Shown one piece after another: positions 852-21,111 of a stretch of 64,000 nucleotides of DNA (positions are counted from its first letter, which is position 1; each line of letters starts with the position of its first letter). Under the pieces are notes generated by a model. It ran no database searches, was not told the origin of the DNA, and saw only the letters and a list, made by a program, of their open reading frames with translations. The translations under genes and the position numbers were made by a program. Source of the DNA: an uncultured Planctomycetia bacterium. Its GTDB lineage: Bacteria; Omnitrophota; Gorgyraeia; 2-02-FULL-51-18. Location of the stretch: positions 432,168 through 496,167 of the forward strand of contig CAZXLF010000001.1 in NCBI GenBank assembly GCA_964642015.1, written 5' to 3'.

Positions 852-2411
852 ATGGATCAAAAATATTATCTAACGACGCCACTTTACTATGTGAACTCTA
901 AGCCGCATATCGGGCATTCATACACGGAGATCGCTGCCGATACTTTGGCTCGATGGCACAGGCTCACGGGAAAAGAAGTGTTTTTTCTTACCGGTACGGA
1001 CGAACACGGCCAGAAAGTAGCCAAAGCTGCCGAGGTAGCAGGGATGACGCCCAAAGAATTCACGGATAAGATCTCTCTCACATTCCGCGAACTTTGGAAA
1101 ACGCTCAACATTTCCGAGCATGATTTTATCCGCACGACCGAAGAACGCCACAAAAAGTGCGTAGAATTCGTATGGAACAAGATCAAAGGCACAAAGATCA
1201 ACAGCGAAGACGTGCTTTATCGCCACACGTATGATGGTTTTTACTGTGTCTCTTGCGAAACTTTCATTACCGAGGGACTTTTGGATCCCAATAATCCTGC
1301 GATTTGCCCTGATTGCAAAAAACCGCTGGAACGCATGAAGGAAGACACTTACTTCTTCCGCATGTCCGCTTATCAGGGCCGCCTGATAAGGGAGATTAAG
1401 GAAGGTACGTTCAAGATCCTGCCTGAGTCGCGCCGTAATGAAGTTTTAGGGTTCCTTGAGCACAACAAGCTTTCGGATCTCAGCGTATCGCGTCCAAAAA
1501 GCCGTTTATCGTGGGGCATTCCGATCCCGTTCGATCCGGAGCATGTGACTTATGTCTGGTTTGACGCATTGATCAACTATGTCTCGGCAGTAGGTTATGG
1601 AAATAATGAAAATTTGTTTAAAAAATGGTGGCCCGCCGATGTCCATATCATCGGCAAGGACATTATCCGGCATCATGCGGTCATTTGGCCGACACTTCTT
1701 TATGCGCTTGAAGTGCCGTTGCCTAAGCTGATCTTTGCGCATGGCTGGTGGACTGTTGACGGCGAAAAGATGTCGAAATCACTCGGTAATGCCGTTGATC
1801 CGACGGATATTGTGAAACAATATGGTGTTGACTCTTACCGTTATTTTTTATTGAGAGAGACGCCTTTCGGCGAGGATGGCACTTTTAGTGAAGAGGCGCT
1901 GATCAAGCGATTTAACATGGATTTGGCGAATGATCTGGGAAATTTATTGAGTCGCTCTCTTACTATGTGCGAAAAATATTACGATGGAAACATTCCGGAA
2001 GGTGGCACTGATTCTTATGCCCCATTGAAGGTAGATATTAATGAGTTAGCTCCGAAACTTAAAATGCTTATGGACCATTTAGCATTTTCGGAGGCGTTGG
2101 GAGAAATTTGGAGTCTTGTTAATCAAGCTAACAAATACATTGAAGAATCTGCGCCATGGAAACTATCAAAAGAGGGCAAATTGGACGATCTTAGAATTGT
2201 TATGATAGTTCTTCATGAGACATTGAAAGCGGTGGCACAAGCTGTGTGGCCATTTATGCCTGTCACAGGCGAAGCAATTTGGACTCAGCTTGGTTTGCAA
2301 GGTAAACCTTGCGATCAACCGTTTAGAGAAAATATGTGGGGATTTTTTAAAAATGGCGGAAAGATCGCCAAAGGATCGCCGCTTTTTCCCAGGATTGAGG
2401 TAAAAAAATAA
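852..2411 (+). CDS. metG: methionyl-tRNA synthetase, short form without the C-terminal tRNA-binding domain
   Basis: Class I aaRS HIGH motif (PHIGHSYT), KMSKS motif and a Cys-rich connective-peptide knuckle. 519 aa. Confidence 0.95.
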   Translation: MDQKYYLTTPLYYVNSKPHIGHSYTEIAADTLARWHRLTGKEVFFLTGTDEHGQKVAKAAEVAGMTPKEFTDKISLTFRELWKTLNISEHDFIRTTEERHKKCVEFVWNKIKGTKINSEDVLYRHTYDGFYCVSCETFITEGLLDPNNPAICPDCKKPLERMKEDTYFFRMSAYQGRLIREIKEGTFKILPESRRNEVLGFLEHNKLSDLSVSRPKSRLSWGIPIPFDPEHVTYVWFDALINYVSAVGYGNNENLFKKWWPADVHIIGKDIIRHHAVIWPTLLYALEVPLPKLIFAHGWWTVDGEKMSKSLGNAVDPTDIVKQYGVDSYRYFLLRETPFGEDGTFSEEALIKRFNMDLANDLGNLLSRSLTMCEKYYDGNIPEGGTDSYAPLKVDINELAPKLKMLMDHLAFSEALGEIWSLVNQANKYIEESAPWKLSKEGKLDDLRIVMIVLHETLKAVAQAVWPFMPVTGEAIWTQLGLQGKPCDQPFRENMWGFFKNGGKIAKGSPLFPRIEVKK

Positions 2412-3559
2412 TGGAAGCCTATCTCGATTATAATGCGACAACACCGGTTGATCCGCGCGTGTTCGAAGAGATGAGGCCGTATTTATCGGTGGAATATGGA
2501 AATGCCTCTAGTTTTCATAAAAAAGGGCAGTCCGGCCGCAATGCTATCGAATTAGCCCGCGAAAGGATCGCCAATCATCTTGAAGTCGAGCCGGGAGATA
2601 TTATTTTCACTTCGGGCGGCACCGAAGCCGATAATCTGGCCGTCAAAGGTGTTATGGAATTATTCAGAGGAAAAAAAGATCATCTTGTCGTCTCAACGAT
2701 CGAACATCAAGCGGTTTTATATCCGGCGCAGTATTTGGAAAAGCAGGGCGTGAAAGTGACTTTTATTCCGGTCGATAAAAGCGGCATCGTGGATCTGGAT
2801 GCCTTGAAGAAAAGCGTGACCGAAAACACAGCACTTGTCAGCATCATGCATGTGAATAATGAAGTCGGCACGATACAACCAATTAAAGAGATCTCAGAAA
2901 TAGCGCACGCGAAAGGCGCTTTATTTCATACGGATGCGGTTCAGTCTTTCGGTAAGATTTCCATTGATATCGAAGATGTAAAGCCGGACATGGTTTCTAT
3001 ATCGAGCCATAAAATTTGCGGTCCAAAAGGTGCCGGCGCGCTTTATCTGAAAAAAGGTGTCAAGATTAAACCAATGCTTCACGGAGGCCATCAGGAAAAA
3101 AATATACGTCCCGGTACTGAAAATGTGGCGGCGATCGTCGGTTTTGGAAAGGCGACGGAGCTTTTGTCCGAAAGCAGGGAATCTGAACATGTGCTTAAAT
3201 TGAAAAACAAACTTGAGGCGGGTCTAAGGAAGAAAGTGCCGAACATTCATCTTAATGGCCATGAGATCCAGAGGATTTATAACACGCTGAACCTTTCATT
3301 TGAAGGTCTGGACGGGGAGACGCTTTTGATGAATCTGGACCTCAAAAATATTTATGCCTCAACCGGTTCTGCCTGCACCGCCGGGTCAGTGGAATCATCT
3401 CACGTCTTGCTTGCGATGGGCATTGGCGAAAAACTTGCACAGTCGGCGATCCGTTTTTCTTTGGGGCGGTTCACGACGGAGCAGGAAATCGATTACGCGC
3501 TCGTCGAAATCCCGCCTATTATTGAACGCTTAAGGAAGGGTTCAACCAGTGCTCGTTGA
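2411..3559 (+). CDS. cysteine desulfurase, class-V aminotransferase (NifS/IscS family)
   Basis: SSHKICGPKGAGAL PLP-lysine region and active-site Cys in 'STGSACT'. 382 aa, typical NifS length. Confidence 0.85.
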   Translation: MEAYLDYNATTPVDPRVFEEMRPYLSVEYGNASSFHKKGQSGRNAIELARERIANHLEVEPGDIIFTSGGTEADNLAVKGVMELFRGKKDHLVVSTIEHQAVLYPAQYLEKQGVKVTFIPVDKSGIVDLDALKKSVTENTALVSIMHVNNEVGTIQPIKEISEIAHAKGALFHTDAVQSFGKISIDIEDVKPDMVSISSHKICGPKGAGALYLKKGVKIKPMLHGGHQEKNIRPGTENVAAIVGFGKATELLSESRESEHVLKLKNKLEAGLRKKVPNIHLNGHEIQRIYNTLNLSFEGLDGETLLMNLDLKNIYASTGSACTAGSVESSHVLLAMGIGEKLAQSAIRFSLGRFTTEQEIDYALVEIPPIIERLRKGSTSAR

Positions 3560-4325
3560 TACACATTGCCATTTGCATTTTGATGCATTCGATGCCGATC
3601 GCGAGAAGGTGATCGAGCGTGCGCGTGAGTTTGGCTTAAAGTATTTGGTCAATGTTGGTACCGATCCCGAAACAAATCAGGCGGCATTCGAACTAGCCAG
3701 CAAACACGACGATATGTTTCATACGGCGGGCCTTCATCCGCATCATTCACATCAGATCACTGAAGAAGGGATAAAAGAGTTGAAGGAATTTGTCTTGAAG
3801 AATAAACCTTATGCGATCGGTGAAATCGGGCTTGATTATTTCAAGAGCGAAGCGGATCCCGAAACTCAGAAAACAGTTTTTGCCAAAATGTTACGTTTAG
3901 CTATGGAAGTAAATTTGCCGGTGATCGTGCACTCGCGCAACGCTTTTGAAGACACGATGAAAATTATCAAAGAAGAGACGGGTGGGAAGATCAAAGGCGT
4001 CATGCATTGTTTTTCTTATGATGAGGCGGCTTTGGAGGAATTGTTGAAAATAGGATTTCTTGCTTCGTTTACGTGCAATCTTACTTTTAAAAACACTGGT
4101 CCGCTCTTGGAAGTCGCTAAGAAAGCACCGCTTGACCGAATAATGCTCGAGACAGATTCTCCGTATCTTGCGCCTCAAATATATCGCGGAAAACGCAATG
4201 AGCCGTCCTGTTTGGTTAATTTGTCGCAATTTTTGTCCGAACAGAGAGGGATCGATCAGGAGAAGCTTGAATCAGTTACCACGGAAACCGCCATCCGTTT
4301 CTTCGATCTGAAAAATAAAAAATGA
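3549..4325 (+). CDS. tatD: TatD-family metal-dependent hydrolase/DNase
   Basis: N-terminal 'VDTHCHLHF' motif. 258 aa. GTG start overlapping the upstream gene. Confidence 0.9.
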   Translation: MLVDTHCHLHFDAFDADREKVIERAREFGLKYLVNVGTDPETNQAAFELASKHDDMFHTAGLHPHHSHQITEEGIKELKEFVLKNKPYAIGEIGLDYFKSEADPETQKTVFAKMLRLAMEVNLPVIVHSRNAFEDTMKIIKEETGGKIKGVMHCFSYDEAALEELLKIGFLASFTCNLTFKNTGPLLEVAKKAPLDRIMLETDSPYLAPQIYRGKRNEPSCLVNLSQFLSEQRGIDQEKLESVTTETAIRFFDLKNKK

Positions 4326-5371
4326 ACCGAATTGTGAGCGTTATCAAGGAGAACCGTCCGGCGTTTTTGATGGTTCTTTTTGTCGCGGTGTTCTATTTAT
4401 TTGTTTTTTACGCGGATCGCGCCGAAAAAAAAGATCTTAAAAACAGTCATGCTGAGAATTCCTATTCGATCGTTAGCGATAAAGAGATCAAAGCTAAAGA
4501 GGATCTTTTTGAAAAGAATATCCGCACTCACCATGTGTTCATCGCATTAGCTGCATTAATATTTCTTTTGGTGGTCATAAGCGGTTTTGCGCTTGATGGA
4601 TATTTGATTGGAAAGAAAATCAAAGGCCAGCCCCTGATCCAACCAACTTTATCTCACGACACTGTTTTATGGGGACTGAAGGATGTTGCTGAAGTGTTCG
4701 CTTTTTTATTTTTTATCGAATCGGTCATTTTGATCGTTGAACTTTTGGTGTCATATTTTTTAGATTTCAAAGGCCTGGAAAAACATTCGATCCTGATGCT
4801 GAATAGTTTGATCCGTGACGTTTCTGCAGCTACGTTTGTGATCTATCTTGTGGCCAAGCGTTTTAAGCACGAACTTTGGACGGTAGGGTTGACGACAAAA
4901 AATTTCTTTAAAAACGTAAAAATAGGCGTTATCGGGTATTTATCAATAATTCCGGCGATCCTGGCGGTGCTTTTTATTTTATCGGTGATAGCCAAAAAAT
5001 TTTCCTACGAACCTCCGGTACAACCGGTGGTACAGATCTATCTTAAGGAATCGGAGAAGAACTATCTTTTATTTTTTACCTTATTTGTGGCGATTGTCGG
5101 CCCGATCATAGAAGAGGTATTCTTCAGAGGTTTTACCTATAAGGCGTTTCGCCAGAAATGGGGTGTCTGGCGGGCGCTTACACTCTCCTCCGGCATTTTT
5201 GCGGCGCTGCATATGAGTCTGATCGGTTTTTTGCCTATTTTTATGCTCGGGTTTTTTCTGGCTTATCTATACGAAGCCACCGGGTCGCTTGTACCGTCGA
5301 TGATGGTGCATATGATCCATAATTTGATCATGGTATCGATGACCTTGATCTTTAAGAATTATTCGGGTTAG
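4322..5371 (+). CDS. CPBP-family intramembrane glutamic endopeptidase (CAAX protease-like) membrane protein
   Basis: Multiple hydrophobic helices. 'EEVFFRG' motif 1 and 'FxxxH' / 'HxxxN' motifs (FAALH, HMIHNL) of the Abi/CPBP family. Confidence 0.7.
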   Translation: MNRIVSVIKENRPAFLMVLFVAVFYLFVFYADRAEKKDLKNSHAENSYSIVSDKEIKAKEDLFEKNIRTHHVFIALAALIFLLVVISGFALDGYLIGKKIKGQPLIQPTLSHDTVLWGLKDVAEVFAFLFFIESVILIVELLVSYFLDFKGLEKHSILMLNSLIRDVSAATFVIYLVAKRFKHELWTVGLTTKNFFKNVKIGVIGYLSIIPAILAVLFILSVIAKKFSYEPPVQPVVQIYLKESEKNYLLFFTLFVAIVGPIIEEVFFRGFTYKAFRQKWGVWRALTLSSGIFAALHMSLIGFLPIFMLGFFLAYLYEATGSLVPSMMVHMIHNLIMVSMTLIFKNYSG

Positions 5372-5378
5372 GAATTGT

Positions 5379-6311
5379 ATGGTATCTAAAAATTTGAGAT
5401 CCTTCGGTGAATTCGGCTTGATCGATAAGATCGCCAAGATGACGCGCACGGATCGCTCGGTTCTTCTAGGAATAGGCGATGATACGGCTGTTCTTAAGAT
5501 AGGCGGCGCAAATATTCTTTTTACAACGGACATGCTGATCGAAGACAAGCATTTCAGATTGTCGGAGGCGACCGGCTTTGAGATCGGATGGAAAGCGCTG
5601 GCTGTAAATATAAGCGATATTGCGGCGATGGGCGGGTTACCGCTTCATGCGGTGGTGGCGGTAGGCCTGCCTCAGAGTTTGAATGTTCAATTTGTGATGA
5701 AAATATATGAAGGATTGCGCGCGGCGGCTAGACAATTTCACGTGAATATCGTCGGCGGCGATACGAACGCCTCAGAAAAATTAGTGATCTCTGTTGCGCT
5801 GATTGGAAGCTGCGGCAAGCGCCGACCGGTCATGCGGTCCGGCGCCAGGTCAGGGGACGTCGTCTTTGTGAGCGGTGCTCTGGGCGGTTCGTATGGATCA
5901 GGAAAACATTTGAATTTTATGCCGAGGATCGCTGAATCCCAGTATTTGATCAAAAATTTCAAGATTAATTCCATGATAGATATTTCTGATGGTTTGTCGT
6001 CGGACATCCATCGGTTGGCCAATGCAAGCCGTGTCGGTGCAGCGCTCACGCAGAGAGTGATCCCGGTTGCGCGGTCAACGGGAAAGATCGAAGAGGCTTT
6101 TACGGATGGCGAAGATTTTGAGCTTCTTTTCACCATGTCTTCAAAAGAAGCGGCGCGTTTGATGCTTGCCAAAAAACCGAAAACGCTGGCCGATTTCCAC
6201 GCGATAGGAAAAATAGTGCCCAGAAAATTTGGCATCAAACTTTTAAAAAATAACGGCAAGGAAGAGCCGCTTTTGGAAAAAGGATTTGATCATTTTCGTG
6301 ATAAAAGTTGA
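5379..6311 (+). CDS. thiL: thiamine-monophosphate kinase
   Basis: PurM-like fold with a 'GEFGLIDKI...LGIGDDTAVL' N-terminus typical of ThiL. 310 aa. Confidence 0.85.
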   Translation: MVSKNLRSFGEFGLIDKIAKMTRTDRSVLLGIGDDTAVLKIGGANILFTTDMLIEDKHFRLSEATGFEIGWKALAVNISDIAAMGGLPLHAVVAVGLPQSLNVQFVMKIYEGLRAAARQFHVNIVGGDTNASEKLVISVALIGSCGKRRPVMRSGARSGDVVFVSGALGGSYGSGKHLNFMPRIAESQYLIKNFKINSMIDISDGLSSDIHRLANASRVGAALTQRVIPVARSTGKIEEAFTDGEDFELLFTMSSKEAARLMLAKKPKTLADFHAIGKIVPRKFGIKLLKNNGKEEPLLEKGFDHFRDKS

Positions 6312-6741
6312 GACCAATTCCGCGAAAGAAACCCAAAAGATCGGTAAAAAGATCGGTGCTTCGCTAAAGGCGGGCGATGTGGTAGCGCTCGAAGGGCCGC
6401 TCGGCGCTGGTAAGACGACTTTGGTCAAAGGGATCGCCGAAGGTCTTGGCGTGAAGGACAAAAAAGAGGTTGTGAGCCCTACATTTGTTCTCGTCCACGA
6501 ATATGAGGCTCGCGAGAAGATCTATCATATCGACTGGTATCGCCTGAAGAACGTTGAAGGGCAGGACAGAATGTTGGCGGAAGAATGTTTTGACTCGAAA
6601 GCCGTCACGCTGGTCGAATGGGCGGAGCGCGGCAAAGAGATTTTTCCTAAAAAACATATCAGGATATCATTGAAATATAAAGGACCCGAGAAGCGCTTGA
6701 TCCAAGTGAGCGGATTGAAGAATGAAAATATTGGCGTATGA
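6286..6741 (+). CDS. tsaE: tRNA t6A biosynthesis ATPase TsaE (YjeE)
   Basis: Walker A 'GPLGAGKTT' and small size (about 150 aa). Paired with tsaB downstream. The true start is probably a few codons inside the 26-bp overlap with thiL. Confidence 0.85.
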   Translation: MIIFVIKVETNSAKETQKIGKKIGASLKAGDVVALEGPLGAGKTTLVKGIAEGLGVKDKKEVVSPTFVLVHEYEAREKIYHIDWYRLKNVEGQDRMLAEECFDSKAVTLVEWAERGKEIFPKKHIRISLKYKGPEKRLIQVSGLKNENIGV

Positions 6742-7399
6742 TACTTCCAGCGAGGTTTTGACCGCCGCCATTTTTGACGGTCAAAAAAAAGTAGCGGAGC
6801 TTGAATCCGGTTCATTTGCAAGGCACTCCAGTGTTTTGGTGCCGGTGCTGGACAAATTATTGAGATCAAGCCGGATCGATCTGTCTCAGATAGAGGTTAT
6901 TGCGGTGGGTTTGGGTCCGGGTTCTTTCACCGGACTGCGAGTGGGCGTCACGACTGCAAAGATACTTGCATATACCCGGCAGATAAAGCTTATTGGCGTT
7001 TCAAGTCTTGAATCGATCGCGCTTCAAGGTAAAGGCTTTGAGGGAGATATTGCGGTGATCCTGGACGCGAAAAAGGAAATGCTTTATGCGGGTTTATATG
7101 AAATCAGTGAAGGCCGATTTAAGATCATTCAAGATCCCAAGCTTGTCACAATAAATTCTTTGGTAAAAAATCTTAAAAAACCTCGGCTTTTTCTGGGGGA
7201 CGGCGTCAAGATCCATCATGATAAAATATCGGCCTCAGACCGATGCCGGATCATCGAGAAGGCTGATTCGGTTTATCCACGCGCGTCTTGCATTGTTCAG
7301 CGCGCAACGGATCTGGTCCAAAAAAAGCGCTGGGCAGATCCTTTTAAATTGGAACCTCTGTACCTTCATCCGCGTGATTGCAATGTAAATAAAAAATGA
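6722..7399 (+). CDS. tsaB: tRNA t6A biosynthesis protein TsaB (YeaZ), inactive Kae1/TsaD paralogue
   Basis: N-terminal 'MKILAYDTSSEVLTAAI' ASKHA-fold signature. 225 aa. Confidence 0.85.
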   Translation: MKILAYDTSSEVLTAAIFDGQKKVAELESGSFARHSSVLVPVLDKLLRSSRIDLSQIEVIAVGLGPGSFTGLRVGVTTAKILAYTRQIKLIGVSSLESIALQGKGFEGDIAVILDAKKEMLYAGLYEISEGRFKIIQDPKLVTINSLVKNLKKPRLFLGDGVKIHHDKISASDRCRIIEKADSVYPRASCIVQRATDLVQKKRWADPFKLEPLYLHPRDCNVNKK

Positions 7400-16317: not shown

Positions 16318-16833
16318 TTGCTTTCGAAGAATATCGCGCTGATAGGGTTTATGGGTACCGGCAAGACTAGTGTCGGAAAGATTTTGGCGAAACGGCTCAA
16401 TCGGCCAGTCGTAGATGTTGACCAATATATCGAAGAACGGGAAAAAAGAAAGATCAGTGAGATCTTTGAGAAGCAGGGCGAGGCGCATTTCAGGGCTCTT
16501 GAAAAGGACGCGATCTTGAAAATATGTTCGCAGCAAGGCATTGTTATCACAACCGGCGGGGGAGCGGTGCTTGATCCGGAGAATTTTCAGGCGCTAAGAT
16601 CATCCGGCTGGGTGATAGGGCTTTTAGCGAAACCTGAAACGGTCTTTAAGAGAGTAAAAGATTCCCGTCATCGTCCTCTTCTGGAAGGCAAAGACAAGCT
16701 ACAGGAGATAGAAAAGCTTTTAGAGGTAAGAACGCCAATTTATGAGAGAGCGGACTTTCACTTTTATACTGATGGACAAACCGCCGCTCAGGTGGCGGAG
16801 GCTATATTGAAAACATTGGATCAAAAAGCATGA
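16318..16833 (+). CDS. aroK: shikimate kinase
   Basis: P-loop 'GFMGTGKTSVGK' in a 171-aa protein. TTG start immediately after the aroC stop. Confidence 0.9.
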   Translation: MLSKNIALIGFMGTGKTSVGKILAKRLNRPVVDVDQYIEEREKRKISEIFEKQGEAHFRALEKDAILKICSQQGIVITTGGGAVLDPENFQALRSSGWVIGLLAKPETVFKRVKDSRHRPLLEGKDKLQEIEKLLEVRTPIYERADFHFYTDGQTAAQVAEAILKTLDQKA

Positions 16834-17936
16834 AACAAGACAGCGATCAGCTGAAATATATGGTCGGTCTTAGTCTGGCGATGAATGTCGGCGCAGTGAC
16901 CTTTAGGAAATTGATAGAGGAATTTGGTAGCGTCGAGTCGATCTTTCAGGCCTCGCCAAAAGATCTATCGTTTATCAAAAGATTGCCTAAAACTTTATGC
17001 GACGAATTAAAGAGCGGCATTCTTATTGAAAAAGCACAAAAGGAGATCGGGGAGGCTGAGAAAAATAAAATTGATATCATCAGCATTTTAGATGCTCGAT
17101 ACCCAGATGCGCTAAAATCAATATATGATGCACCGATGGTCCTTTATGTACGAGGCTCATTTCCTGATGAGAAGATGCCAATAGTGGCTGTTGTCGGCTC
17201 AAGAAATGCGTCGTATTATGGAATTCGTATGGCCAAAAAGATCGCTGCCGATCTTTCGAAGTCCGGTGTTATTGTGGTAAGCGGTATGGCAATCGGTGTC
17301 GACAGCGCTGCGCATGAGGGGGCATTATCCGAAGATGGCATTACACTTGCCGTTCTCGGTGGAGGTCTGGCAAGGATCTACCCGTCAGAAAATAAAAAGA
17401 TCGCGGATCAAATCATCAAAAGAGGCGCGCTGATCTCAGAATATCCTTTGAACATGCCCCCTCAGCCTCAATTTTTTCCTATGAGAAACCGGATTATCAG
17501 CGGTTTATCTCAGGCAGTTTTGGTCGTGGAAGCTGGTGAAAAAAGCGGCGCGCTGATTACAGTTGATACAGCATTAGAACAAGGACGCGAAGTTTTTGCG
17601 GTACCCGGCAATGCTGACTCCAAGCATTCAAGCGGAACCAATGCATTGATCAAGCAAGGAGCCAAGTTGATCACTTGCGCCGAGGATATTTTGGAAGAAC
17701 TGGAATTAAAAAATCCGACGAACACGTGCAAAAATGATTCGTCCGATGTAAAAGTCTCCATGAATGAGGAAGAAAACCGGCTTTTTTCTTTATTGAATAA
17801 TGAACCGCTCAACATTGATACGCTGATCGAGCAAAGCGGGACCGCGCCCGGCAAAACGATTTCGAACTTGTCTGGTTTGCAATTAAAGGGCATCGTAAAA
17901 GAATTGCCAGGAAAAAATTTTACAAGAAACATCTAA
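16830..17936 (+). CDS. dprA: DNA-processing protein A (Smf), RecA loader for incoming ssDNA
   Basis: DprA Rossmann-like core ('VVGSRNASYYGIRMAKKIA...GMAIGVDSAAHEGAL', 'SGALITVDTALEQGREVFAVPG') plus a C-terminal winged-helix domain. Conserved smf-topA neighbourhood. Confidence 0.9.
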   Translation: MKQDSDQLKYMVGLSLAMNVGAVTFRKLIEEFGSVESIFQASPKDLSFIKRLPKTLCDELKSGILIEKAQKEIGEAEKNKIDIISILDARYPDALKSIYDAPMVLYVRGSFPDEKMPIVAVVGSRNASYYGIRMAKKIAADLSKSGVIVVSGMAIGVDSAAHEGALSEDGITLAVLGGGLARIYPSENKKIADQIIKRGALISEYPLNMPPQPQFFPMRNRIISGLSQAVLVVEAGEKSGALITVDTALEQGREVFAVPGNADSKHSSGTNALIKQGAKLITCAEDILEELELKNPTNTCKNDSSDVKVSMNEEENRLFSLLNNEPLNIDTLIEQSGTAPGKTISNLSGLQLKGIVKELPGKNFTRNI

Positions 17937-17947
17937 AGGAAAACAAA

Positions 17948-20191
17948 ATGTCTGAAACGGCACAATACATTTCAATACAGCTCAACGGTGAAAAGCGGCA
18001 GCTGCAGGAAAATAAAACTTTACTGACTCTTTTGGCCGACCTTTCTATTCCCAAGGAAAAGGTGGTCATCGAGGTGAATCTTGAGATCATTTCCAGAGAT
18101 CAATGGGCGGACCATATTTTAAAGGAAGGCGATCAGGTTGAGATCGTACATTTTGTGGGCGGCGGCGCAGAAACCGCGAAGGCCCTTGTGATCGTAGAGT
18201 CGCCGGCAAAGTGCAAGACCATCCATAAATATTTAGGGAACAATTTTGAGGTTGCGGCGTCAATGGGGCATCTTATTGATTTGCCGAGAAGCAAAATGGG
18301 CATCGATATTGAAAACAATTTTGAACCCCAGTATATCGTTGTTAAAGACAGAAAAAAAACGCTTTCTGAACTTAAGAAAAAAGCCAAAAACAAAAAAGAG
18401 ATCTTCCTAGCCTGCGATCCCGACCGTGAAGGAGAGGCGATCAGCTGGCATTTAAAAAACGAACTCGGTAAAGGGAAAAAGGTCTCTCGAGTCGTGTTCA
18501 ATGAAATCACAAAGGATGCCGTGCTTGAAGCTTTCAAACACCCGTCGCATATCGACATGTGTCTGGTGGGTGCTCAGCAGGCCAGGCGTGTGCTGGACAG
18601 GCTTGTGGGTTATTCGTTGAGCCCGCTTTTATGGCAAAAGGTGGGCCGCGGTTTGTCAGCGGGCCGTGTTCAATCCGTGGCGCTTCGTCTGATTGTTGAT
18701 CGCGAGAGAGAGATACGCGCTTTCGTGCCGGAAGAATATTGGAGCATCGAAGCCGAGCTTAAAAAAAAGAAAGGCCATTCCCATTCATTTATTGCGAAAC
18801 TTGAGAAAATTAATGACATCAAGGCGGAGATCAAGAATGAGTCTGAAGCCAAAAGACTTTATGAAAAAATAAAAACGAATGCTTTTGTCGTCAAAGAAGT
18901 CAAACAGCAGAAGAAAAAAAGGAATCCATATCCACCGTACACAACGAGCAAACTTCAGCAAGCTGCTTACAATGTTCTGCGTTTCCCTGCTTCTAAAACG
19001 ATGAAGATCGCTCAGATGCTTTATGAAGGCGTTGAGATTGGGGATGAAGGCAGCGTGGGACTCATCACCTATATGAGAACGGACTCGGTGAGGATATCCG
19101 AATCCGCGCTCAAGGAGACGCGTGAGCTGATATTAAAAAATTACGGAAAAGAATATCTGCCCGAAAAACCCAATTTTTATAAGGCCAAAAAAGAGGCGCA
19201 GCAGGCGCATGAAGCCATTCGTCCGACCTCTGTGAAACGCCGTCCGAAGGACATCGAAGAATATCTTACGCCGGACCAGTTTAAACTTTACTCTTTGATC
19301 TGGCAGCAGGCCGTATCAAGCCAGATGACGCCTGCGGTGATTGCGCAAGAAACTGCTGACATTGCCGCCGGAGAACACCTATTCCGTTCGACCGGAAGCC
19401 GTTTGGAGTTCAAAGGTTGTCTTGTGGTTCAGGAAAAATCCGAGGAGCAGGACAATCCGTTGCCCCCTCTTGCTGTTGGCGAAGTTCTTGATCTCTTAAA
19501 GCTGGAGAATCATCAGCATTTTACAAAACCGCCGGCGCGTTTCACCGATGCATCGCTTGTCAAAGCGCTTGAAGAAAGGGGGATCGGCAGGCCCTCGACT
19601 TATGCGCCCATCATCCAGACTCTGACCGGAAGAGATTATATCCGCAGAGAAGGCGGAAGCTTGGTGCCTACTGATCTGGGGATATTGGTGACGGATCTTC
19701 TGGTCCAGTATTTTTCGAAGATCCTTGATTTTGAATTTACTGCGAAGATGGAAGAAGAGCTCGATGAAGTGGAAGAGGGTAAAGCCGAATGGGTGGGCGT
19801 CGTGAAAGAGTTTTACGGTGTGTTTAGCGGTCAAATGGACCACGCAAAGACCACGATGCAGACTGTGAAGCGCCAAGAAGAGCCGACAGACGAAATCTGT
19901 GATCTTTGCGGAAAGCCGATGGTCATCAAATGGGGCCGGCGGGGAAAATTCATGAGTTGCTCAGGATGGCCCGGGTGCCGAAATGCGAAGTCTATTCCGA
20001 CAGCCGTGGTTTGTCCACAGTGTCAGATTGGCAAGCTTGTTGCGCGTCGCGCGAAATCCGGCCGAGGACGCACATTTTTTGGCTGCACCAAATACCCCGA
20101 TTGCACTTTTATGACCAACCGGTTGCCAAAAGCTGAGGGGGACGCAAAAGACGCAGGGGCAGACTCGCAAGAATCGCCGGCAGCGGAGTGA
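17948..20191 (+). CDS. topA: DNA topoisomerase I carrying an in-frame N-terminal ThiS/MoaD-like sulfur-carrier (beta-grasp) domain
   Basis: Residues 1-75 resemble E. coli ThiS as recalled from memory and end in '...GDQVEIVHFVGGG', a ThiS-type Gly-Gly terminus. With no stop codon it continues into the TopA TOPRIM N-terminus 'KALVIVESPAKCKTIHKYLG...MGHLIDLP'. The TopA body has the active-site Tyr region and two C-terminal Cys4 zinc ribbons. 747 aa. Confidence 0.9.
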   Translation: MSETAQYISIQLNGEKRQLQENKTLLTLLADLSIPKEKVVIEVNLEIISRDQWADHILKEGDQVEIVHFVGGGAETAKALVIVESPAKCKTIHKYLGNNFEVAASMGHLIDLPRSKMGIDIENNFEPQYIVVKDRKKTLSELKKKAKNKKEIFLACDPDREGEAISWHLKNELGKGKKVSRVVFNEITKDAVLEAFKHPSHIDMCLVGAQQARRVLDRLVGYSLSPLLWQKVGRGLSAGRVQSVALRLIVDREREIRAFVPEEYWSIEAELKKKKGHSHSFIAKLEKINDIKAEIKNESEAKRLYEKIKTNAFVVKEVKQQKKKRNPYPPYTTSKLQQAAYNVLRFPASKTMKIAQMLYEGVEIGDEGSVGLITYMRTDSVRISESALKETRELILKNYGKEYLPEKPNFYKAKKEAQQAHEAIRPTSVKRRPKDIEEYLTPDQFKLYSLIWQQAVSSQMTPAVIAQETADIAAGEHLFRSTGSRLEFKGCLVVQEKSEEQDNPLPPLAVGEVLDLLKLENHQHFTKPPARFTDASLVKALEERGIGRPSTYAPIIQTLTGRDYIRREGGSLVPTDLGILVTDLLVQYFSKILDFEFTAKMEEELDEVEEGKAEWVGVVKEFYGVFSGQMDHAKTTMQTVKRQEEPTDEICDLCGKPMVIKWGRRGKFMSCSGWPGCRNAKSIPTAVVCPQCQIGKLVARRAKSGRGRTFFGCTKYPDCTFMTNRLPKAEGDAKDAGADSQESPAAE

Positions 20192-21111
20192 CCATGGACA
20201 GTTATGCCGATAAGTTTCTTACTTATCTGAAGGTGGAAAAAAATTATTCTAGGCACACGCTGATTAATTATTCCCACGATCTTAAGGAATTTTATGGATT
20301 TCTTGGTGAAAATTCTTTACCCGGTGTTGATATTGCTTTTTTTAGACGATATCTCGCGAGTCTTAAGGAAAAAAATCTTTCGAAGCGTAGTATCGCCAGA
20401 AAAATGGCGACGCTTAGAACGTTCTCGAAGTTTTTGACGCGAGAAGGTTATTTGAGGAAAAATCCGATGAGTGCCTTGAGGACGCCGAAACTGGAAAAGA
20501 AGCTCCCCATGGTCTTGGATGAAAGTGAAATAAGCCGGCTCATGGATTCCACCGGAAACGACCTGATCGGTCGCCGCGATCGGGCGATCTTAGAAACGCT
20601 TTATTCGACAGGAATGCGTGTGTCAGAGATCGTCCAATTGAATTTAGAACGCGTCGATTTTATCGGCGGTGTGTGCCGTGTCATAGGAAAAGGCTCTAAA
20701 GAACGTTTATGCCCGATCGGTGACCGCGCTCTCAGAAGCATCCGACATTATCTTGAGCTTCGGGAAGCTGAAGGGTCTAAAGGTTCTAAATCGAAACGGA
20801 ATAAGAAAATAGCAAACGGCCAGGATGCTCTTTTTCTGAATCATTCTCCGAATCAGATGGGATCGCGGATCACCGATCGAAGTGTGCGCCGAGTGATGGA
20901 CCGCTATATCGAAAAGACTTGCCGACGAGAAAATATTTCGCCGCATACGCTGAGACATTCATTTGCGACGCATCTTTTGAATCGAGGAGCTGATCTAAGA
21001 TCGGTGCAGGAGCTTTTGGGTCATGAAAATCTGTCGACGACACAAATCTACACGCACGTTTCCACGCAGAGGCTCAAAGAGGCCTATGACAAAGCTCATC
21101 CAAGGGCATAA
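20188..21111 (+). CDS. xerC: tyrosine site-specific recombinase XerC/XerD family (chromosome dimer resolution)
   Basis: N-terminal core-binding domain 'FLTYLKVEKNYSRHTLINYSHDLKEF'. Catalytic R...HxxR...Y motifs ('HTLRHSFATHLL', 'LLGHENLSTTQIYTHV'). Conserved position after topA. GTG at 20188, or ATG at 20194. Confidence 0.85.
   Translation: MTMDSYADKFLTYLKVEKNYSRHTLINYSHDLKEFYGFLGENSLPGVDIAFFRRYLASLKEKNLSKRSIARKMATLRTFSKFLTREGYLRKNPMSALRTPKLEKKLPMVLDESEISRLMDSTGNDLIGRRDRAILETLYSTGMRVSEIVQLNLERVDFIGGVCRVIGKGSKERLCPIGDRALRSIRHYLELREAEGSKGSKSKRNKKIANGQDALFLNHSPNQMGSRITDRSVRRVMDRYIEKTCRRENISPHTLRHSFATHLLNRGADLRSVQELLGHENLSTTQIYTHVSTQRLKEAYDKAHPRA

Follow-up and report, generated by a model that had tools for sequence, protein, structure and literature searches.

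A ThiS-type sulfur carrier encoded as the N-terminal part of DNA topoisomerase I in Omnitrophota: a possible precursor fusion

The 64,000-nucleotide stretch of DNA analysed here (the window; contig CAZXLF010000001.1, from an uncultured bacterium of the Omnitrophota) contains a single open reading frame (ORF) in which a full-length sulfur carrier protein, ThiS, is joined to a complete DNA topoisomerase I, TopA. The ORF was taken from the sequence and the ORF list, and when the sequence was read across the ThiS/TopA junction, no stop codon or frameshift was found. An earlier note, made on this DNA from its letters alone, had proposed a canonical ThiS ending in Gly-Gly and fused in frame to TopA without an intervening stop; the first part was borne out by the PF02597 and TIGR01683 profile searches and the second by the sequence, the ORF list and the match to TIGR01051. 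The features of the locus are listed below, with positions counted in the window.

16830 to 17936, + strand: dprA, the gene directly upstream (PF02481, 273 bits).
17936 to 17940, + strand: Shine-Dalgarno sequence AAGGA, 7 nucleotides 5' of the ATG at 17948 and overlapping the dprA stop codon.
17948 to 20191, + strand: the fused ORF, starting with ATG at 17948 and encoding 747 amino acids (aa).
17948 to 18166, + strand: ThiS domain, aa 1-73, a beta-grasp domain ending in V70-G71-G72-G73 (profiles, ThiS alignment and structure prediction).
18155 to 18166, + strand: junction codons, with V70 at 18155-18157, G71 at 18158-18160, G72 at 18161-18163 and G73 at 18164-18166.
18161 to 18166, + strand: the Gly72-Gly73 codons, at the position of the C-terminal carboxylate of ThiS; the proposed cut site would lie after G73.
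18167 to 18184, + strand: spacer A74-E-T-A-K-A79, six codons between G73 and L80.
18185 to 20191, + strand: type IA DNA topoisomerase I, aa 80-747 plus stop; the first TOPRIM strand, LVIVESPAK, runs from L80 at 18185. Its subdomains are TOPRIM (aa 80-187), the core (aa 202-619) and two C4 zinc ribbons (about aa 649-720).
20188 to 21111, + strand: a tyrosine recombinase of the xerC/xerD type (PF00589, PF02899), whose GTG start overlaps the topA stop.

The N-terminal part matched Pfam PF02597 over aa 10-73 with 61-66 bits (cutoff 22.5), and the NCBIfam thiS equivalog TIGR01683 over the whole model (1-64 of 64) with 75-82 bits (cutoff 37.45). It could be aligned end to end with the solved ThiS proteins of Bacillus subtilis (1TYG_B) and Escherichia coli (1F0Z/1ZUD), G72-G73 falling on their terminal Gly-Gly. 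An AlphaFold2 model based on a 59-sequence alignment predicted a strand-strand-helix-strand-strand-strand beta-grasp fold for aa 7-68, with predicted local distance difference test (pLDDT) values of 80-90; for TopA, the prediction was confident from aa 79 on. The mean pLDDT of the whole model was 86, with values below 50 only at aa 70-75 (VGGGAE), and the spacer is predicted to be disordered between two confident domains. Judged by its sequence, then, the fused domain is a canonical ThiS and not a diverged beta-grasp protein. In the primary product, 674 residues follow G73 in frame, and so the C-terminal carboxylate of ThiS would become free only upon proteolysis.

The TopA part is complete as well. 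TIGR01051 (topA_bact) matched aa 80-683 with 798 bits against a cutoff of 456, and PF01751, PF01131 and PF01396 all matched this part, covering TOPRIM, core and zinc ribbons. The catalytic residues E84 (in LVIVESP), D157-P-D159-R-E161 and Y375 (in LITYMRTD) are present and were invariant in 59 aligned homologues. Internal translation starts for TopA were also considered. A GTG at 18155, formerly held to be the sole alternative start, does exist as the V70 codon, but another GTG, preceded by a weak AAGG, lies in frame at 18188 (V81), and neither of them is conserved in relatives. At the junction, 13 of the 23 fused loci for which DNA was available lack any ATG, GTG or TTG in frame, and the remainder show no consistent Shine-Dalgarno sequence. 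An internal start was rejected because the candidates are not conserved and, therefore, TopA is made only as the fusion.

When the full protein was used as a query, the exact protein and about 100 further clusters of 55-85% identity were retrieved, all with the same four Pfam domains. Distinct full-length fused clusters numbered 98 (plus truncated fragments), from NCBI, JGI, ENA and Logan, and every named one belongs to Candidatus Omnitrophica/Omnitrophota; PF02597 was matched by all 98. An independent Logan assembly of SRR12313480 (L142) was identical over 6041 bp, junction included. Among GTDB species-representative genomes, ten gave matches that set in with the ThiS part; nine of them have the fusion as one ORF, and in the tenth (L012) the genes are split. 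At TopA loci of other phyla found in this GTDB scan, the match started at about residue 67-80 of the query, without ThiS. Some GTDB representatives are labelled 'uncultured Planctomycetia', and their TopA proteins are 70-78% identical to that of the window. In a scan of JGI and ENA metagenomes, the topA-linked ThiS loci were fused in 11 of 11 cases. When the ThiS domain was searched against 1.84 billion 50%-identity representatives, the proteins listed were all short and none was a full-length fusion; the fused proteins presumably cluster under TopA representatives. What this search did bring out was that C-terminal tails occur on many ThiS proteins, and that ThiS can also be fused to ThiG. 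The fused proteins are currently named 'type I DNA topoisomerase' or 'hypothetical protein' in the databases. In agreement with the earlier note, which knew of no description of such a fusion, full-text literature searches, in which the term 'ThiS' also matches the word 'this', returned no account of it.

The ThiS part is strongly conserved in the fused homologues. N13, G14, E42, N44, D62, E65, G72 and G73 were invariant, and twelve positions (N13, G14, L28, L29, E42, N44, D62, E65, V67 and G71-G73) are each conserved in at least 95%. The motif preceding the spacer reads VGGG in 90 of the 98 fused proteins, IGGG in five, and MGGG, VCGG and VSGG in one each; as all of these variants end in GG, the terminal Gly-Gly is invariant, and it is also kept in all 38 of the stand-alone relatives described below. 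The residue that follows is Ala in 75, Ser in 16, Gly in three, Lys in three and Thr in one. From there on, the stretch between GGG and LVIVESP is hypervariable in both length (4-35 residues, median 6) and sequence, being rich in A, K, G, S and P. For pairs with unsaturated synonymous divergence, the ratio of non-synonymous to synonymous substitution rates (dN/dS) was 0.09-0.21 for ThiS and 0.06-0.10 for TopA; the ThiS part is under purifying selection. Mean pairwise identity was 50% in the ThiS part and 70% in the TopA part, and the two sets of distances were correlated (r = 0.75), thus indicating that the module was inherited jointly with TopA.

An unfused state is found at the same locus in a basal clade of high GC content. 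In L109 (GC 67%), where the aroK-dprA...xerC synteny is retained, a 67-aa thiS ends in VHFVGGGA followed by a stop, and topA begins one nucleotide further on with ATG-GCC-AAA-AAA-CTC (MAKKLIIVESPAK), so that the junction reads GCA TAA c ATG GCC AAA AAA CTC. In L140 (GCA_016192545.1) and L141 (a Logan contig), the order is dprA-thiS-topA and the thiS stop overlaps the topA start (GCG-TGATGG); the ThiS of L140 scored 79 bits on TIGR01683. In L139 (GCA_016196405.1), an extra ORF of 266 aa without Pfam match lies between thiS and topA (6392-7192). This ORF starts with MAKNLII, which copies the N-terminal seven residues of the neighbouring TopA, as though the topA start had been duplicated by the insertion.

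When the L109 ThiS was used as a query, 38 clusters were obtained, 37 of them at 61-100% identity and two named in NCBI as 'sulfur carrier protein ThiS [Candidatus Omnitrophica bacterium]'. After the conserved VGGG, seven of these stand-alone proteins have no tail, 11 have 1-2 residues and 20 have 6-47 unrelated residues. The position of the stop thus drifts freely, as expected if a peptidase exposes the Gly-Gly. The nearest ThiS relatives without linkage to topA are encoded in thiE-thiS-thiG or thiS-thiG operons; the most distant of the 38 (P0424, 55% identity) belongs to a thiE-thiS-thiG operon.

Additional sequence is found on ThiS proteins from public metagenomes. Many stand-alone ones (P0243-P0388 and P0389-P0425) have 1-47 residues past VGGG, and the tails of P0391, P0418 and P0421 resemble each other (..DKRQET.D.R.....S.VS.L.S.V), suggesting a conserved or repeated sequence 3' of thiS in some genomes. 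In P0242 (259 aa), ThiS is followed after GGGSPARALVII by sequence that looks like a heptosyltransferase, and the contig may be chimeric. ThiS-ThiG fusions are common in metagenomes: seven of the 51 loci found with a ThiS query encode full-length proteins of this kind, about 322-339 aa long and with spacers of 6-40 residues after VGGG, one confirmed with Pfam (L106) and six read from the junction sequence (L110, L111, L115, L121, L124 and L125). They pose the same question of Gly-Gly processing, and we know of no characterization of such proteins.

The distribution of the split, fused and ThiS-less states was followed on a rough neighbour-joining tree of TopA from sampled Omnitrophota, rooted with an outgroup and without support values. 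The ThiS-less bin66 (L065) was the most basal in the phylum, followed by the split clade, and the fusion appeared in at least two clades with ThiS-less clades interspersed. On these sequence comparisons, the ThiS module seems to have been lost in several clades, TopA being otherwise unchanged. Within the main fused clade, one TopA (P0208) carries a low-complexity N-terminal extension of 93 residues in place of ThiS. A separate case is L012 (CAZUZR010000003.1, 9995-10290), from a GTDB representative metagenome-assembled genome placed among deep fused lineages, in which thiS has a 24-residue tail and a stop, and topA has a GTG start 5 nucleotides past that stop with AAAGGA upstream; both frames are open across the spacer, and this is probably a genuine split that arose by secondary fission, the other explanation being a one-base frameshift error.

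A further apparently unfused locus, L001/P0005 (1.2-kb ENA contig, 700-1232), was rejected as proof of the unfused state. It is unreliable because its topA start lies in the last 19 nucleotides, dprA has an in-frame TAA where L088 has GAA, and L088, its nearest relative at 96% identity, is fused. There, a thiS ending in GGGS-stop overlaps a topA start (ATG-GCG-AAA-AAC-CTT-GTG) resembling that of the ThiS-less clade, and the ThiS is 96% identical to that of the fused relative; at its end, this contig is probably chimeric or prone to error.

Since the basal high-GC clade is unfused at this same locus, the fusion is best regarded as an old loss of the thiS stop. The window spacer can plausibly be aligned codon by codon with L109: GCA would correspond to the one-residue tail, GAA to TAA, ACC to c-ATG minus one base, and GCG-AAG-GCC to TopA residues 2-4. 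A single stop loss together with a 1-nucleotide frame change can thus account for the fusion. Stop loss had been suggested in the earlier note as a recent event; as the origin it fits the abutting genes of the basal clade, but its recency does not hold. As for the state of the locus in relatives, both of the arrangements it had envisaged occur, thiS and topA abutting in the split clade and fused in 98 clusters.

The order aroK-dprA-[thiS]topA-xerC-waaA-lpxK is common to fused (window, L085, L086 and L087), ThiS-less (L002-L004) and split loci. Genomes with the fused gene also include GCA_022072175.1 and GCA_028716565.1, and CP070684.1 has a TopA that lacks ThiS. It forms part of a block, aroE-pilD-aroC-aroK-dprA-topA-xerC-waaA-lpxK followed by lipopolysaccharide genes, that is syntenic across Omnitrophota. 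In the window (1-64000), 58 of the 60 candidate ORFs with 70 aa or more lie on the + strand, many with stop/start overlaps, such as dprA/aroK at 16830-16833. Two further genes of the window, whose presence upstream had been correctly noted before, bear on sulfur and thiamine metabolism:

2411 to 3559: a cysteine desulfurase of the NifS/IscS family.
5379 to 6311: thiL (TIGR01379, 266 bits).

A previously reported absence was also confirmed: none of thiF, thiG, thiH or moeB was found among the 60 window ORFs, which were read and ten of them checked against Pfam. Between tatD and thiL lies a gene for an Rce1-like, CAAX-type intramembrane protease of the CPBP family (4322-5371; PF02517, 77 bits), with no link to ThiS known or shown. 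The remaining window genes are housekeeping genes, mostly as read from N-terminal sequences, ten having been checked against Pfam.

In the split clade, a gene for a conserved retropepsin-like protein of 145-149 aa with the motif YVDSGAS lies between aroK and dprA and is the second gene upstream of thiS. Its positions are:

L109, about 1019 to 1429: retropepsin-like gene.
L139, 4102 to 4536: retropepsin-like gene.
L140, 4552 to 4998: retropepsin-like gene.
L141, 4356 to 4802: retropepsin-like gene.

Three Pfam aspartyl-protease families matched this protein at 18-26 bits, just below their cutoffs (25 bits against 28), and the gene was found neither in the window nor in the flanks of the fused loci. 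For both reasons it is only a lead, as a possible candidate for the peptidase acting on ThiS tails.

To our knowledge, the Gly-Gly of these carriers functions only as a free C-terminus. A processed precursor is favoured by three features: the Gly-Gly never varies, the spacer is hypervariable and predicted to be disordered, and orthologues occur as free-standing proteins with random tails. We hold with moderate confidence, on sequence evidence, that ThiS-TopA would be cleaved after G73 to yield ThiS and TopA as separate proteins, as is the case for MoaX and for ubiquitin fusions. The ThiS carrier would be translated as the N-terminal 73 residues of the topoisomerase, and an endopeptidase cut after Gly73 would release ThiS-Gly-Gly and a TopA starting at about Ala74; the freed ThiS-Gly-Gly could then be adenylated and thiocarboxylated for thiazole/thiamine synthesis or a related sulfur transfer. 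The presence of ThiL and a cysteine desulfurase in the window is counted in favour of this reading. The two states would differ in the peptides obtained with trypsin, EGDQVEIVHFVGGGAETAK spanning the uncleaved junction and EGDQVEIVHFVGGG being the semi-tryptic peptide of the cleaved form. As to its origin, thiS may have been inserted between dprA and topA, giving a translationally coupled thiS-topA pair whose thiS stop was later lost. Such a loss would have done no harm in a lineage that already removed any residues after the Gly-Gly of ThiS; an activity of this kind is also the simplest explanation of the stop codons that drift past Gly-Gly. TopA would then be made obligatorily as a polyprotein in the manner of ubiquitin precursors, with a Gly-Gly-directed peptidase releasing both parts whatever the downstream sequence, a proposal for which we put belief and doubt at about the same level.

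Several known systems resemble this arrangement in part. Ubiquitin precursors (the fusions to eL40/UBA52 and eS31/RPS27A, and polyubiquitin) are released by a Gly-Gly-directed peptidase and, like ThiS-TopA, present a Gly-Gly beta-grasp protein that is always synthesized at the N-terminus of an unrelated housekeeping protein. ThiS differs in being a sulfur carrier rather than a demonstrated protein modifier, in having a topoisomerase as partner and in being bacterial, with a processing that is hypothetical. In Pseudomonas, the C-terminally extended carrier QbsE is trimmed by the JAMM enzyme QbsD; there and in the ThiS-ThiG fusions, residues after Gly-Gly are to be removed, but what follows the Gly-Gly is a short peptide or the cognate enzyme rather than an essential protein of unrelated function. 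With stand-alone ThiS (TIGR01683; 1TYG_B, 1F0Z/1ZUD), the fused domain shares the whole fold, the conserved residues and the VGGG end, whereas its carboxylate is not free in the primary product and no thiF, thiG or thiH is adjacent. The fusion of TopA to a SWI domain in Chlamydia (NF004966) is similar in that a complete, catalytically intact TopA bears an extra domain. The extra TopA domains known to us are C-terminal DNA- or protein-binding modules, and no N-terminal sulfur-carrier domain was among the curated NCBIfam TopA models matched.

The closest parallels are the MoaD-MoaE fusions. In Mycobacterium tuberculosis, the activity of MoaX depends on a cut after Gly82 (before Ser83) and on both glycines (PMC4326299); in Deinococcus radiodurans, the MoaD-MoaE fusion DR2607 is cut by a JAMM/MPN+ enzyme (PMC8832034). 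ThiS-TopA shares with both a Gly-Gly beta-grasp carrier of the ThiS/MoaD family as the N-terminal part of a larger bacterial protein and, with MoaX, a small residue after Gly-Gly (Ala or Ser in 91 of 98). In contrast, the partner of MoaX and DR2607 is the carrier's own MoaE, whereas ThiS-TopA has an unrelated essential topoisomerase and its cleavage is putative.

A number of points weigh against a cleaved precursor. We infer the cleavage after G73, and Gly-Gly could be invariant in part because a flexible hinge is required. Profile and motif scans of all ORFs in the window and loci L001-L138 gave neither a second ThiS nor a JAMM motif (H[ST]H-x7-S-xx-D), and Pfam lists of the neighbours included no ThiF, ThiG or Thi4 in the 64-kb window or in the flanks of about 10 kb of the fused loci. 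In some Omnitrophica, Thi4 is clustered with thiS and thiF without ThiG (PMC13325395; PMC8454699), and the use of Thi4 instead of ThiG in some members of the phylum (PMC13325395) makes the role of a canonical ThiS there less certain. Finally, the persistence of the fusion across a deep radiation could equally mean that the attached state is useful.

This last point leads to the main alternative, that ThiS is a permanent, uncleaved ubiquitin-like domain of TopA, held on a flexible tether as a docking or regulatory module, which we consider possible but the less probable reading. Such a domain could bind a partner, for instance a ThiF-like E1 or a desulfurase, or modulate TopA stability or activity, and in this way the attached domain may couple the topoisomerase to sulfur-relay or E1 machinery. 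It would agree with the synthesis of TopA only as a fusion, with the stability of that fusion across at least two large clades and with a neighbourhood devoid of a processing peptidase or thi partner. The N-terminus of the first TOPRIM strand also evidently tolerates extensions, as the 93 residues of P0208 in place of ThiS illustrate, and the linkage of thiS and topA, kept even in split loci, could mean a functional link. However, integral ubiquitin-like domains of eukaryotes normally lose their Gly-Gly, whereas here it is kept in 98 of 98 proteins, even with spacers of 20-35 residues where no hinge would be needed. The family-conserved residues and an equivalog-level score have been retained as well, no ordered junction is seen in the AlphaFold2 model, orthologues exist as free proteins with random tails, and several clades seem to have lost the module with TopA otherwise unchanged.

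It is highly improbable that the ThiS part is a functionless neutral passenger left by an accidental stop loss. One such loss with a 1-nucleotide frame change would suffice to create the fusion, and the module seems to have been lost several times; nevertheless, the dN/dS of 0.09-0.21, the twelve positions conserved in at least 95%, Gly-Gly included, and the match of all 98 proteins to PF02597 even though their TopA parts have diverged to 55% identity argue otherwise, as a functionless segment of 73 aa would have decayed or been deleted. An assembly or sequencing artefact, a stop or indel missed between an ordinary thiS and topA as the earlier note had also allowed for, can be dismissed with near certainty, for although split genes occur in relatives (L109, L140 and L012) and a single-base indel would interconvert the states, the independent assembly is identical, 98 diverged clusters from four sources share the architecture, all 11 topA-linked loci of the metagenome scan are fused, and other codons stand in place of the former ATG.

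These results bear on the rise of ubiquitin-type biology from sulfur carriers. Gly-Gly carriers synthesized as fusion precursors are already known as a class of mechanism; what is new is the unrelated essential topoisomerase as partner, the phylum-wide radiation and the coexistence of split, fused and lost states, which at one conserved locus offer a ready-made comparative series. The annotation 'type I DNA topoisomerase' conceals a ThiS that may have no second copy elsewhere in the genome. If the fusion is not cleaved, it would represent the first case of an integral ubiquitin-like domain in a topoisomerase I. If it is cleaved, it would be a natural bacterial case of a Gly-Gly beta-grasp protein produced solely within a precursor that also contains an unrelated essential protein, precursor-only expression being the defining oddity of eukaryotic ubiquitin genes, and would point to a Gly-Gly-directed peptidase with relaxed downstream specificity. 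ThiS-TopA would then be a bacterial counterpart of the fusions between ubiquitin and ribosomal proteins, implying a general activity in the phylum that trims after Gly-Gly.

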